Source: Jimgerdemannia flammicorona (taxonomy: Eukaryota). Taken from it: DNA of 34,374 bases. The stretch's first letter is position 1, and each line of letters opens with the position of its first letter. Where the stretch lies: the NCBI GenBank assembly GCA_003990765.1, contig RBNJ01000275.1:1-34374 (forward strand), given 5' to 3'. The notes under the pieces are model-generated. The model was not told the origin of the DNA. It saw only the letters and a program-made list of their open reading frames with translations, and did not search any database. Positions 11,133 through 24,795 of the stretch are shown here, piece after piece. A program made the position numbers and the translations under genes.

Positions 11133-14100
11133 ATGGGTCCCAAGAGTCGCAAGAGGCAGAAGGAGGAGGACTTCAAGGTACGCTACTACGATCTACGTTA
11201 CACACATACACTCACTTCTAACACATTCTCTTCAACTCAACAGAAACCGAAGCTAAAGGTCGGCAAGAAGAAGGCCGTCGCAGACAACTTCACGGACACC
11301 TCGTTCAAATCCAAAGGTAATTTCCCAGATCAACATAATAAGCTGGAAGTATTGCCATGAATGAAATTCAATACATTAACGATCTGCATGCTTGTAGCCA
11401 TCAGCCTCCCAAACCAAAGCATTAACGAGGACAAATCAAACCAGCTCACCAACGCTCGAAACCTCACGTTAAGTGACCTTGTGGCGCAACTTCGACATTA
11501 TAACGCTGGATCTCGAAAAGGTTGATCGCAATAGTCTCCGGTTGCCCTTCTGATATAAGTGATCAATTCGTTTTAACCCATTCTCGTGCTTTCCAGATGC
11601 AATTCAAGGTCTGCGGGACCTTTTCAATCGGTATCCGGCTATATTACCCTCATCTCTCAGCACCATAGTTAACTCGATTGTCCGCTTGCTTATCGACGAT
11701 GTAAGAGCTAGGTGTACTGTTTCTCTTTGTTTTATGGGGGATTTGACTTCGCAGTGTTTGGGCAAACTCACATCTCAACACTATGGCCTGTCCTGCAGGA
11801 CGGAGATGTACGCAAGGCTTTATTATCATTCCTTAAGGAGTACTTGGCGGCCTTAAACAAGGTACACTACAGTTGTACTTGACTGGCCTATGGGCACCCG
11901 TAAAGACAAACAATGAATCCCCATCCATTCTACCTTCCAACAGTCAGATCTGCAACCCTTCCTACCTCTCCTCATTATATATACTTGCTCCGCCATCACC
12001 CACATCCAAGAGGACATCCGGTCAGACGCAATCAAATTCATGGACCTGTGGATTGATGTCGCACCGGAAGTTGTTGTCGGGCGATTTTGGAAGAAGGTAC
12101 GGAATCAGTGCGATCGAAAACTAGGTGTAAAGAGAGAGTGGGTTGGAATCATCTAACGACCGGTCGCAGGTTCTGGGTAATTACACAAGCCTTTTGGATG
12201 TGAACTCGAACGCTGCCAACATCTCCAAGGGGAGTGGGTTGGAATCTTCTGCCTCCTCAAGTTCCACTATGTTTGCAAACCAGCGCAGTAATCGCGGATC
12301 GGAAAAGGTTAGTTCCATAAACCCAAGTTTTCACCGCTGCCGTCTGTGCTGATTTATGATACTATGTGTTTTTCTTTTTGAACTCAGTCCCGTTTCGTAT
12401 AATCCAATAGACGAAACTGGTCGTGCTCAGTAGCCTGTACAAATTCCTAGATGCCGGACTTTCGGAAAGTTCGGACGATCCGTGAGCACGCGTCTTTGTC
12501 GGGTATTTTCTGTTGCTTTCAAAGACTCGATTCGCTCAGATTTTATTTGTGAACCTTGCATTCGCTTATAGATACTGGTTCTTCCAGAATTTTTTGTCGA
12601 GCCGCCATGCGCGACGAATCTTCTCTAACAAGTATAGAAAGGATGGTGTCAAGAGGCGGCATGATCTGGTGGAGTGGAACGAGTATGGCAAGGTATATTT
12701 CTTTATATGGGCCAAGTAACTATTTTCATGTAAATATGATATCCGAACCTTGTTATGACCGCCCACTTCACAGACCACCACGCTACTACCCCACGCCATG
12801 TGCGCATCCTTTTTACCATACCTGTCACCCGCATCGTTCTCTTCGGTCCCTGTCTACTCCCATCTCAGCCTGTTCGGGTCAACGGGGACGGACGAAAAGC
12901 GGAAATCGGACATCGCCGTCGGCGCAAAGGGTGACAAGGAAGCGGCGGACGAAGAGGCGGACAAACCGGACGTCGGGGGGCGTATGCTTGAGGTGAAGGT
13001 TGGCATCTATTTGGATTGCTCTCTTGACGACTTTGGGAAGGTGTTGTTTGTAATAAATACTCTTTGTCGCGATCTTCTAGGGCATAATCAACACGCTTCA
13101 ACCGGTCTTGCTCGCTACCTGGTTGGACACCGCCCCAACAGTGTTTTCCGCGTCGGGATCAGTGCTGTTCACGTCGGGGCTTCAAACCGTGCATCTCGTG
13201 CTGAAGGTCATGGCGGTGCTGTGGAGAGCGACGCTGAGCGGATCGGCTGGTGCGGTATGAATACCGTGCTATCTTTGTTTGTTTTTGTGCCAACCTTGTA
13301 TTCCGTTCGTACTCTATTTGGAATCTCATAATATCATCTCTTTCCCCGAAATATAGGTAGATCAAACGTGGATCGATTCGCATTTGCAACAGTTACTGAG
13401 ACACTTCATGATTTACTTCCCTTTCGGAAGCGATACATTTGGGATGCGCGATGCCAGGGTAAGATGTTGGCTTTCGCGCAATACTGTTATTAATTGTTGG
13501 ATGTGCTCTCACTATAATAATTGTGGAAAAATATCCCTCCACTCTGGGGAAAATGCCTTATTCCATCAGGTCGAATCCATCCTCCAAGACATGAGCATTC
13601 TCTTCTGCGAGCTCACCTCCCTATTCCTCCTGGCAACCACCTTGTCGTCCACCTCCGACGTCAAAAGCCGTAACGCACCGTCTGAGCAGCCCACGATCGT
13701 GCCCGCCATAGTCCACAAGGCCGGAAAGAGGCGGAGGAAGACGAGGTCGGTCGAGGATGTAGAAGGCGGGGAGGGCAAGACCCCTGCGTGGGTGGAGAGG
13801 GTCGTGGAGTATGTGTTGGCCGTGCTCGGATGGGAGGTATGTTGTTGTTTAGGAAGGAGTTTCGCTTTAAAATCGAATAATTCGAAAATAATTGATGACT
13901 CGGTCCGTATCTCAAACATTTTGATAGAACCCCGCTCAATCTGTGGTTAAGAAGCCTCGGCTTTCGAATCCCCTCATGACGACGTCGACCACAGATTTTA
14001 AACCTGAGCATTTGGCGGCTTTGTTGCCGACATTGTGGGGCTTGTTGAATTGTCTGGGAGAGGAGAAGCAGGAATGGGTGTTTGAGGTATGTCGTTCGTT

Positions 14101-21780: not shown

Positions 21781-22744
21781 ATGGCAAGCTACTTTGGTAA
21801 ATACTATACCATGTTTATTGCACTGATAAATCCCCTATAATAACTCCATATCTACCCCTCTTAGACGACCTCAACATCAAGATCGACAAGAAACCTGCCT
21901 CGCGCTCCACCGTGAATGTTGACGTTTCGCACTTCATGGCGCCCTCGGGTTCCGCCGGTCAGGGGTCCCGTGCACCGGCATTTGAAAGTGACGGAATTGA
22001 CCAGTTCCTCCAAGTTGCAAAGTATATTTTCTGATTCGCCTGTGTCGGCTCGGTGACCAAACTACATGAAGGTGGATCACGAAACTGATAATATTCGTTC
22101 GCTTTTAGTCTCTTTGGTGGTTTTAGGGAACAAGCTTCAGGCGACTACGTTCAACAAGAGTTCTTGGATAATTTAATATCGCAGCTTTTGGAGGAGTCAA
22201 ACGCAAGGTAAGGACTACGCTGCTAATAGTGTTGCATGGTGACGTTGATATATACTTTAATCTCATCCCATTCATATGATGATTCAGTGCAAAAGGTCCG
22301 CCGCCGGCCTCAAAACGTTTCATTATGGATCTACCTTCAGTATCGAAATCCGCCGTTGGACCGTTAGTATCATATCCTTTTGTCTGACTCCACCTACCCA
22401 TATGTCAGTTTGAATATTCGGTTGATATTCTGTTTGCACCTAACAACCGATCGATAGGGACGAGAGCTGCACCGTCTGCAAAGACGTTTTCCACATCAGT
22501 GGCTCCAAGATCACCAAGATGCCTTGGTAAGTGTGCGGAGTTTGTTGTAGTTCGATCTTCAATCTCAAGACTGAGTGAATGACCGTTTATCCGCTTGCTT
22601 AGTGGCCATTTCTTTGACAAGGACTGTATCGTTCCCTGGCTCGAGCTTCACAATACGTGTCCCATGTGTCGAGCCGAGGTCGAGACGGAGAAGAAGGTGA
22701 AGGAGGAGGAAGAGGAGGAGCAACAGAATTGGATGTATTCATAG
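21781..22744 (+). CDS. RNF181-like RING finger E3 ubiquitin ligase; exons 21781-21796, 21865-22021, 22109-22207, 22288-22362, 22458-22526, 22603-22744 (185 aa)
   Basis: Spliced translation MASYFDDLNI...LDNLISQLLEE...GPPPASKRFIMDLP...CTVCKDVF...[27 protein letters not shown]...WMYS*. The exons sum to 558 nt, in frame. Not in the ORF track. Confidence 0.88.
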
Positions 22745-23014
22745 AAGGCCTTAGATCAGCGTGGATATATGACCCTTGTATCACATGTATTTGTACATTG
22801 ATAATTCAGCATCGAGAACTGCAATCCGCTCTCCATCCTTTCTACACTATGTATTAGCAAACAACTTATAGGAATGGCCAGCGTAGTCTATTTCAACTAT
22901 TGTCTTTAATTAAACAGGTCTGGTATTACCTACAGGCATATACAAAAATATAAAATTTCACGGCAATGGATCAGCAAAAATGTAAAACAAATGTGACAAA
23001 GCCAATTCACAATA

Positions 23015-23092
23015 TGGTGGTTCAGAACGTTGAAAATATTTTCCTCACTATGATTCGGAATTAGCATGGTACGTTAAACATCACAACCACCA
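23015..23092 (-). ncRNA. snR53: Box C/D snoRNA, snR53-like (predicted 2'-O-methylation guide for the 18S rRNA Am796 equivalent)
   Basis: 7-bp terminal stem TGGTGGT/ACCACCA, box C variant GTGATGT, guide CCATGCTAAT antisense to 18S AUUAGCAUGG, D' CCGA, C' GTGAGGA and box D CTGA. The +5 rule selects the A in UUAGC. Confidence 0.85.
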
Positions 23093-23191
23093 AGAGCCCA
23101 AAATGACCGAAGTACAGTACCTACCCGTAATATAAGGACAAAGAATGCGCACTACTTTGAGTAGTCCTTTTGAGAATTGGATGTCAGAAAG

Positions 23192-23285
23192 GAAAATCAG
23201 TGCACTATTCGAAAACCGTAACAACTGTCTCAAAAACAATCGTTTGTCATCAAACGCGATCAGCAAATTGTGTCATCATAGTTTC
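23192..23285 (-). ncRNA. Candidate orphan box C/D snoRNA
   Basis: Box C ATGATGA (23279-23273), D' CTGA (23263-23260), C' TTGATGA (23253-23247), box D CTGA (23200-23197, alternative 23187-23184) and a short GAAA/TTTC stem. It lies just downstream of a GTAAGC donor. Confidence 0.7.
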
Positions 23286-23574
23286 AGAATTTGATAATAT
23301 ATGGTAATCATATCGCAGGCTTCATCGGACTAAATAGGAGTGAATTAGGTGCTTACCGATGTCATGAGTTTCGTCGGTTGCCTTGCCGCCGAGGAGCCCG
23401 AGGGCAATGAAGACGGCGCTGTTGTTGTCGATTATGTTGACGGAAATGATAATGACGCGAGGGACTACGCCGGCGCCTGCGATGTTAGGAGCGACCCCAT
23501 GTGCGTCTTCGTGTTTAAGGCTGTATTAGGCTTTATTAGCATTCCCTCCGGTAACCAAGCCCATTGTGTGTTGT

Positions 23575-23627
23575 TTGTGTTGTGTGTGTGTGTATGTGTG
23601 TGTGTGTATGTGTGTGTGTGTGTGTGT
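23575..23627. repeat. Imperfect (GT)n microsatellite
   Basis: Read directly. Confidence 0.95.
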
Positions 23628-23754
23628 GGAATGCCATCGTGCACAATAAACCCTTGGCCATGGTTCTTATCTTGTCAAAAACCTAATGGTTTAATAAACA
23701 GAGGATCAGTACGAATCCCTCGCTAAAAAACGCAATCAACAGAAGAGGACGAAT

Positions 23755-23845
23755 GTCATGTTCAGATTCTCTTTTTGGCTGTGAGTGCTTATATTCTCGA
23801 CACGATTCTTTCCGCCTGGGGCGGCAAAGCAATCATCATGATGAC
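23755..23845 (-). ncRNA. snR67: Box C/D snoRNA, snR67/SNORD31-like (predicted guide for the LSU P-loop Gm, yeast Gm2619 / E. coli Gm2251 equivalent)
   Basis: Stem GTCAT/ATGAC, box C ATGATGA (23839-23833), guide TGCCGCCCCAG antisense to 25S CUGGGGCGGCA, D' CGGA and box D CTGA (23765-23762). The +5 rule selects the second G of UGGGG. Confidence 0.88.
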
Positions 23846-24007
23846 TTTCAAAGAATGAAAAAGTGGGAGAAGAGCCTACCTTTGGGGTTGTTGGGGGTGG
23901 AAGAAGGAGAGATGTTTTTTTTTTATTTTTCCCGAAAGGTGGTGTGTGATGTCATCCCAGATCCAAAATTTGTTTCTGGTTTGGTGGCCTTCCTTCACGA
24001 AACAACC

Positions 24008-24795
24008 ATGTTTGCACGCGCCTTGAGCCCAGCGTTCGGAGCCTTACCCAAAGTCCTGCCTGCCTCGGTTTTCGGTCGCATCGGTGGGTCTTTGAGTGAG
24101 GGAGCCTGTTGAGTATTGTACAAGTCTAGTCTCGCTGAATGTCGTCCAACTTCTCTCCTTATTGTGTACAGCGGTGGCACCTTTTATGCAATCGCAGCTG
24201 TCTCGATATCTCGTTCCGGCGGTTGCTGCAGGTAAAACGATTTGCGTGTATTTTTGACGCCCTTCAATGGAAAGATTTGAGTCTCTCCCCCCAAGACAGT
24301 GCCTCACCCTTTCGCATTTTATTGAAATTAGTTTCCCATATCCACACCACCCGCCGCGTGACACCATCACCTCAAGCTCAACCCGCGAGTTCCACTACCG
24401 CACTGGCTACCTTGGATGCGACGACTAAAGACGCTGTCTCCCTTCTCCGATCCCAGCTTCGTTACTACGCCATCGTGGAGATCATGGGCCGCCCTCACCT
24501 CATCACCAAGAATGATCTTGTGATAGTGAATCGGCTGCTAGACGTTGAAGTCGGCGACGTCGTGGAGCTAAACCGGGTGCGGGAGCTCGGTTCCCGGGAC
24601 TACACGATCAAGGGCTCCCCGTACGTGAGCGAAAAATTCTACACCATCAGAGCGACGGTGGTGGAGCATACCAAGAGTCGGATGATCCGGGTCGTGAAGA
24701 AGAAGCGAAGAAAGAATTACAAGAGGACGGTGACGCACAAGCAGACCCATACGTCGTTGAGGATCGCGGAGTTGGATATCAATAAGTTGGATTAG
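24008..24795 (+). CDS. MRPL49: Mitochondrial ribosomal protein bL21m; exons 24008-24083, 24172-24231, 24332-24795 (199 aa)
   Basis: Presequence-like N-terminus and L21 domain YYAIVEIMGRPHLITKNDLV...RVRELGSRDYTIKGSPYV...VVEHTKS...KKKRRKNYKRTVTHKQTHTSLRI. Exons sum to 600 nt. Confidence 0.93.

Follow-up and report, generated by a model that had tools for sequence, protein, structure and literature searches.

Human SNORD4 (Z17, mgh18S-121; RF00266), the guide for 18S Um121, is intronic, and in Saccharomyces cerevisiae there is a snR67-snR53 unit in which snR67 precedes snR53. In plants, the corresponding uridine is Um123, for which Arabidopsis snoR116 (RF01422), a member of the polycistronic cluster snoR117/116/85, has an 11-bp D' guide that has been matched to mgh18S-121/Z17B (PMC2875012). 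The published tables, in the portions available, treat plant Um123 and human Um121 as one position and leave its yeast entry blank (PMC11542601; PMC8583080). Fungal snoRNA hosts with several introns, one C/D snoRNA in each and little coding potential have been described (PMC3596301, PMC2780460), and in the first of these reports comparable one-per-intron hosts appear but, in the accessible text, neither snR53 nor snR67 occurs. A further point of comparison is provided by SNORD13/U13 and yeast snR45, the ac4C guides of 18S helix 45.

We analyzed one stretch of DNA of 34,374 nucleotides (hereafter the window). A non-coding host transcript holds snR67, the RNA studied here and snR53, one per intron, and in all likelihood the middle one of these introns contains a compact snoRNA (~23316-23256) that would guide methylation at 18S U122. 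The RNA resembles snoR116 in having an 11-bp D' guide to the same position, in the column-for-column alignment of the two guides and in being a single guide. It differs in length (~61 nt versus 84 nt), in scoring far under the Rfam cut-off and in occupying an intron of its own in a fungal non-coding host rather than a place in a plant polycistronic cluster. With SNORD4/Z17 it shares the target position, the use of a D' guide, a short D'-C' loop and its size (the model is 71 nt), whereas the guide letters differ along with the rRNA and no homology is demonstrable beyond the boxes and the guide (13.4 bits). The host is organized like the fungal hosts above, and its order is that of the S. cerevisiae unit, except that snR67 and snR53 have a third snoRNA between them.

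The Host Transcript and the Flanking snoRNAs

Contigs of sequencing run X1 have a 190-nt gap that corresponds exactly to the intron at 23167-23356, and a comparable joint was found in run X2; the two runs share one organism code, the RNA nature of both is a guess made by the tool, and contigs, from which the splicing was read, cannot reveal a small RNA. Runs X3 and X4 contributed small shares and left the snoRNA uncovered. A loose X1 contig end at 23356 corresponds to the downstream exon but shows several differences from it, which suggests that a diverged allele or a relative also splices the 190-nt intron.

Each of the two flanking snoRNAs is enclosed by its own GT..AG stretch, 195-197 nt long; the studied RNA is inside a third (Table 1). 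The snR67 and snoR53Y matches are below the Rfam gathering scores despite their low E values; at gathering thresholds Rfam gave 0 matches in the 34-kb window, in which no tRNAs were found either. The D' guides of both flanking snoRNAs point to the expected rRNA sites in the same +5 scan as was used for the studied guide, with the target equivalences of snR67 and snR53 taken from the available part of PMC3511168. The snR53-like guide (RNA at 23015-23091, minus strand) forms 10 bp (1 G-U) with 18S at A795 in the numbering of L011, a eukaryotic rDNA locus introduced below. This RNA also resembles U6 guides (Rfam snoU6-53), a likeness reported for fungal snR53 (PMC5824354).

No convincing protein was found in the host exon frames examined. 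The second exon of the host contains a (GT)n/(CA)n microsatellite at 23565-23635. The host and a plus-strand gene are arranged head to head, with starts within ~300 nt of each other (23879-24182), and this gene looks like that of mitochondrial ribosomal protein L21. The 3' UTR of a plus-strand gene (22602-22930, +) extends to 22930 in run X2, and this UTR and the minus-strand host transcript probably overlap tail to tail. Elsewhere, the window encodes the second subunit of RNA polymerase I, whose match to solved RPA2/RPA135 chains marks the DNA as fungal, and a BTB protein nearest to clusters in which Mucoromycota is the commonest phylum, the basis for a probable place in that phylum.

Boxes and Boundaries of the snoRNA

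The earlier note on this DNA had placed a C/D snoRNA in an intron of its own between snR67 and snR53, and this is right; the flanking snoRNAs are real-looking. A small box C/D guide RNA is very probably present in the intron, with a start slightly upstream of the interval first drawn, 23184-23285. Just 5' of that interval are a further box C (23311-23305) and a further box D' (23287-23284), the latter with an 11-bp guide to 18S. Neither the first boundaries nor the label of orphan was confirmed. In our reading, the snoRNA is real, it was drawn with the wrong ends and it is not an orphan.

The four boxes first named are present as letters, all on the minus strand: ATGATGA at 23279-23273, CACAATTTG followed by CTGA at 23263-23260, TTGATGA at 23253-23247, and TTCGAATAGTGCA followed by CTGA at 23200-23197. 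Their assignment was set one step too far 3', and the supposed C and D' fit better as C' and D, in a shorter snoRNA with a standard methylation guide. In this 61-nt parse, boxes C, D', C' and D follow in order and are closed by a 5-bp TGCGA/TCGCG stem in kink-turn register.

Table 1. Features of the studied intron and its surroundings (positions in the window).
Feature	Position	Strand	Remarks
snR67-like snoRNA	23760..23843	-	In predicted intron 23683-23879; Rfam 27.3 bits, E 0.0051
Host intron, 190 nt, GTAAGC..AAG, spliced	23167..23356	-	Joint in contigs of run X1, similar joint in X2
Predicted mature box C/D snoRNA, ~61 nt	23256..23316	-	Ends placed by the terminal stem
Terminal stem, 5' arm TGCGA	23313..23317	-	GCGA also in L121; four pairs have probabilities of 0.33-0.45 when the naked intron is folded
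Box C, ATGATTA	23305..23311	-	One mismatch; same variant in L121
Predicted D' guide, TATTATCAAAT	23289..23299	-	11 bp to 18S 119-129 (L011); 23292 (fifth nt from D') opposite U122
Box D', CTGA	23284..23287	-	
Box C', ATGATGA	23273..23279	-	Originally called box C
Box D, CTGA	23260..23263	-	Originally called box D'
Terminal stem, 3' arm TCGCG	23255..23259	-	
Intronic hairpin, 11 bp, predicted	23220..23244	-	Downstream of the snoRNA; -8.6 kcal/mol; encloses most of each 18S-complementary segment
Second 18S-complementary segment	23226..23237	-	Pairs with 18S 33-44 over 12 bp (2 G-U); not present in L121; probably fortuitous
First 18S-complementary segment (named in the earlier note)	23212..23224	-	13 bp (2 G-U) to 18S 1754-1766; 8-mer 23224-23217 is snR45 GS2 antisense; absent from L121
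Originally called box D, in context CACTGATT	23195..23202	-	Like sibling branch-point motifs; candidate branch A 23197, alternative 23184
snR53/snoR53Y-like snoRNA	23015..23091	-	In predicted intron 22930-23124; Rfam 41.9 bits, E 4.7e-06

Between an intronic C/D snoRNA and the branch point, a spacing of some tens of nucleotides is required. The branch motifs of the sibling introns are TACTGATC and TGCTGATC, and the box D first named either lies on the candidate branch point (A23197) or is 12 nt away from the alternative one (A23184). Box D and the 3' splice site are 93 nt apart in the 61-nt parse and 79 and 92 nt apart in the siblings, as against 30 nt in the original parse. On the other side, 45 nt separate box C and the 5' splice site (siblings 40 and 40; original parse 77). 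In Neurospora crassa, the 5' distances are mainly 41-60 nt, and the importance of the 3' distance has been noted (PMC2780460, in the part available). Counting against the 61-nt parse is its C-to-D span of only 52 nt, compared with 63 and 78 nt in the siblings. A long form reaching from C at 23311 to D at 23200 was rejected as its flanks have no terminal stem.

No methylation target had been recognized beside the original D' and D, and this agrees with our scan of 18S, ITS and most of LSU rRNA, in which the best site beside the former was 7 bp and none of at least 7 bp was found beside the latter. Likewise, for the 9-nt spacer before box D of the 61-nt parse (23260-23263), there was no rRNA target above 7 bp.

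The Predicted Target in 18S rRNA

The best rRNA site for the D' guide is 18S 119-129, with 11 bp and the +5 base opposite U122; an equal score was reached by 3 of 400 shuffled guides. The pairing was computed on the 18S of other eukaryotes. On that of L011, an rDNA operon that is a contaminant of a prokaryote assembly, the helix has 1 G-U, and on that of L005 it is perfect; the target uridine is U122 in the L011 numbering and U123 in that of L005. These two belong to 32 loci (L002-L033) in bacterial or archaeal assemblies that hold eukaryotic 18S rDNA, apparently by contamination. Among the 31 of the 32 fetched loci that were long enough, the guide formed 11 bp in 23 (perfectly in 4, with one G-U in 12 and with two G-U in 7), 10 bp in 6 and 7 bp in 2, figures to be read with the first seven target letters fixed by the search pattern. 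Scans of viral contigs for rDNA gave a single locus, a short 18S-like snippet with no Rfam match.

Alignment with the Rfam snoR116 and snoZ17 families, together with the published tables, makes U122 (L011) the equivalent of plant Um123 and human Um121. Both families align over 23255-23317 with their guides on the studied guide, although neither score is significant: snoR116 gave 11.9 bits (E 6.8, cut-off 47) and snoZ17 13.4 bits (E 3.2, cut-off 44), and the unrelated SNORD98 outscores both on this sequence with 20 bits. Because the scores are under the gathering cut-offs of RF01422 and RF00266, the RNA does not qualify as a formal member of snoR116 or SNORD4. We predict that it works like snoR116 and SNORD4/Z17, and claim neither formal membership nor common descent.

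Relatives in Metagenomes

A metagenome search with a pattern made of box C, the guide, D' and TGA, in which snR53 had no part, returned at least 118 loci. Among those listed, one was an orthologue (L121), six had snoR116-like RNAs and 111 were judged by eye to be chance matches; L116 and L080 were inspected and dropped.

L121 (25% GC) is a syntenic orthologue. It opens in the same way, with GCGA-ATGATTA, has a guide that differs by one change, and retains TCTGAAA. The stem is there as a G-U variant, and a C'-like box is followed by a degenerate D box, ATGA, closed by TTGC. The block is within an intron-like stretch, and snR53 follows ~270 nt downstream in the next such stretch. The snR53 guide and box C occur in 1 of the 118 loci listed, namely L121. 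The guide block of L121 was selected by the pattern, and the independent support for orthology is its stem, its intron context and snR53. Box C of snR53 is TGATGT in both the window and L121, and an A-run/TTTTCA segment before box D is common to the two. A separate scan of viral contigs for snR53 gave one locus, which was judged a chance match in coding DNA. Neither TTGTTACG, the 8-mer discussed in the last section, nor TGAGACA is present in L121.

The short length of the RNA, its box C mismatch and its non-significant Rfam scores might mean that the U122 guide is a decaying relic, neither made nor active in this species. We find this hard to credit. The intron undergoes splicing, and it has kept the stem, three canonical boxes and the 11-bp guide intact; moreover, the box C variant is common to L121 and, because it is shared, is old rather than a product of decay.

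The three guide variants (window, L121 and L048/L099) have different partners among three natural 18S variants, and each of these pairings is free of G-U. Covariation would produce such a matching; in this comparison, the guides and the rRNAs come from different organisms.

The six loci with snoR116-like RNAs are L048 (1975-2058, minus strand), L053, L058 (78-162, minus strand), L142, L065 (three tandem copies) and L099 (two copies). Their RNAs are double guides, with D' directed to the U122 equivalent in 18S and D to the G at 18S 1125 (L011), a snR41-type site. For the four of these loci that were submitted, the best Rfam family was snoR116, at 23-29 bits. As to their source, an algal origin is our guess.

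A Proposed Pathway for the U122 Guide

Our preferred reading, the compact U122 guide, implies the following pathway. The host is transcribed from the minus strand and the 190-nt intron spliced out, as seen in the RNA contigs. By analogy with other intronic snoRNAs, exonucleases would, after debranching, trim the intron back to the C/D kink-turn, which would be bound by protein and which the GCGA/TCGC stem closes. The D' guide of the assembled snoRNP would then pair over 11 bp with the 18S 5' domain, as it does on the 18S of other eukaryotes, and Nop1/fibrillarin would, by the +5 rule, 2'-O-methylate U122, opposite the fifth nucleotide from D'. The part of the intron 3' of 23255, including TTGTTACG and the original box D, would be spacer and branch point and would be degraded.

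If this is correct, the plant and animal methylation Um123/Um121, missing in budding yeast, is also guided in a fungus, probably one of the Mucoromycota, and in at least this host its guide is placed between snR67 and snR53. This suggests that the mark was retained in early-diverging fungi and lost later. In a thin literature search, which included Table 1 of the N. crassa study, we found no printed fungal guide for the U122-equivalent site; an apparent match to "Um122" in the accessible text of PMC2780460 seems to be part of "Um1227". The fungal snoRNAome was seeded from known families, and inventories seeded from a few ascomycetes would miss such a guide by design, a limit that the authors of the snoRNAome state (PMC5824354, in the part available). 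The U122 guide, a standard one for methylation and of the same type as snoR116 and SNORD4, would be a modest evolutionary data point and no new mechanism.

Complementarity to the 18S 3' End

The earlier note had also drawn attention to TTGTTACGGTTTT at 23224-23212, as a possible partner of the 18S 3' end. The 13-bp helix with two G-U pairs is confirmed at 1754-1766 of a real 18S (L011), and the region is indeed the snR45 guide site, as GS2 of snR45 binds 18S 1760-1767 (PMC5464676, in the part available). How much weight the helix bears depends on the comparison made. One as long at that single 18S site is uncommon (43 of 6000 shuffles), and one as long anywhere on 18S does not exceed chance expectation (20 of 150 dinucleotide shuffles in one test, 97 of 1000 in another). 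Yet the 34-kb window has three such helices for the 18S 3' site. One of them, which served as a chance control, spans 15 bp with up to 2 G-U (12745-12759, +) and has no evident C/D context.

Within the segment, TTGTTACG (23224-23217) is exactly antisense to the snR45 GS2 site; this 8-mer, picked post hoc, has a single copy in the 34-kb window and was found in 107 of 20000 shuffled introns. It raises the question of a second RNA from the same intron, with C at 23279 and D at 23200, that would resemble the SNORD13 of Diptera and direct acetylation of helix 45 by Kre33/NAT10 through its internal antisense element only. The intron shares with SNORD13/U13 and snR45 the 8-mer antisense to the GS2 site, which here stands 16 nt ahead of a CTGA. 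Published SNORD13 sequences have this core throughout (supplement of PMC9226516, in the part available), and Diptera SNORD13 works without the 5' element (PMC9226516, in the part available). It is possible to draw this RNA with four near-canonical boxes and a 4-bp GAAA/TTTC stem, and the segment after C pairs with the segment before D.

Several observations count against this second RNA. In snR45, GS2 is in a loop (PMC5464676), whereas here five of the eight bases of the 8-mer are paired, with unpaired probabilities of 0.01-0.22, in a predicted naked fold from which the RNP may differ. The stem between the C and D sides is not significant (396 of 5000 and 1050 of 5000 shuffles; whole fold 69 of 500), the fold of the interval first drawn is no better than that of shuffles (z 0.33), and the terminal stem has a probability of 0.0 in the intron fold. 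Its box D would lie on the branch point or 12 nt from it. The 5' extension of SNORD13, which the earlier note had not seen, is not evident to us either: GS1 is absent, and 1447-1530 of 2000 shuffles pair equally well with 18S 1780-1797. A by-eye likeness of 23340-23320 to the SNORD13 5' element was rejected when the duplex test failed. The SNORD13 and snR45 models were not among the 26 and 25 Rfam matches at E up to 10. The 8-mer also lies outside the predicted mature RNA, and it is not kept in L121, the sole orthologue among the matches listed. The earlier note had named loss of this segment in orthologues as evidence against a SNORD13-like RNA. Because L121 is diverged (25% GC), its absence there weakens the idea without closing it; since the coincidence is non-trivial, we leave the SNORD13-like RNA a small probability and consider it unlikely. 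The 8-mer of snR45 type downstream of the U122 guide is otherwise unexplained except as chance.

A combined form, in which the 61-nt U122 methylation guide and a ~90-nt single-element SNORD13-like guide are nested and share two boxes, with the box D of the latter competing with the branch point, is in our estimate very unlikely. It would, if true, amount to a switch between methylation and acetylation snoRNAs and provide an early-diverging fungus with its missing guide for helix 45. Least probable, and only remotely so, is that the RNA at 23285-23184 is a lineage-specific chaperone snoRNA that bridges 18S 33-44 and 1754-1766 through two adjacent segments. These form adjacent 12-bp and 13-bp helices, a pair seen in 13 of 1000 shuffles in a test made after the helices had been noticed. 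However, each helix has 2 G-U, the segments pair with one another to form a hairpin, L121 has neither of them, and the conflict between box D and the branch point applies here too.

With regard to the compact U122 guide, the hairpin (23244-23220, minus strand) would cut the 75-nt distance between box D and the branch point to ~50 nt, the siblings having 50 and 55 nt, and a role of the hairpin in spacing is possible.
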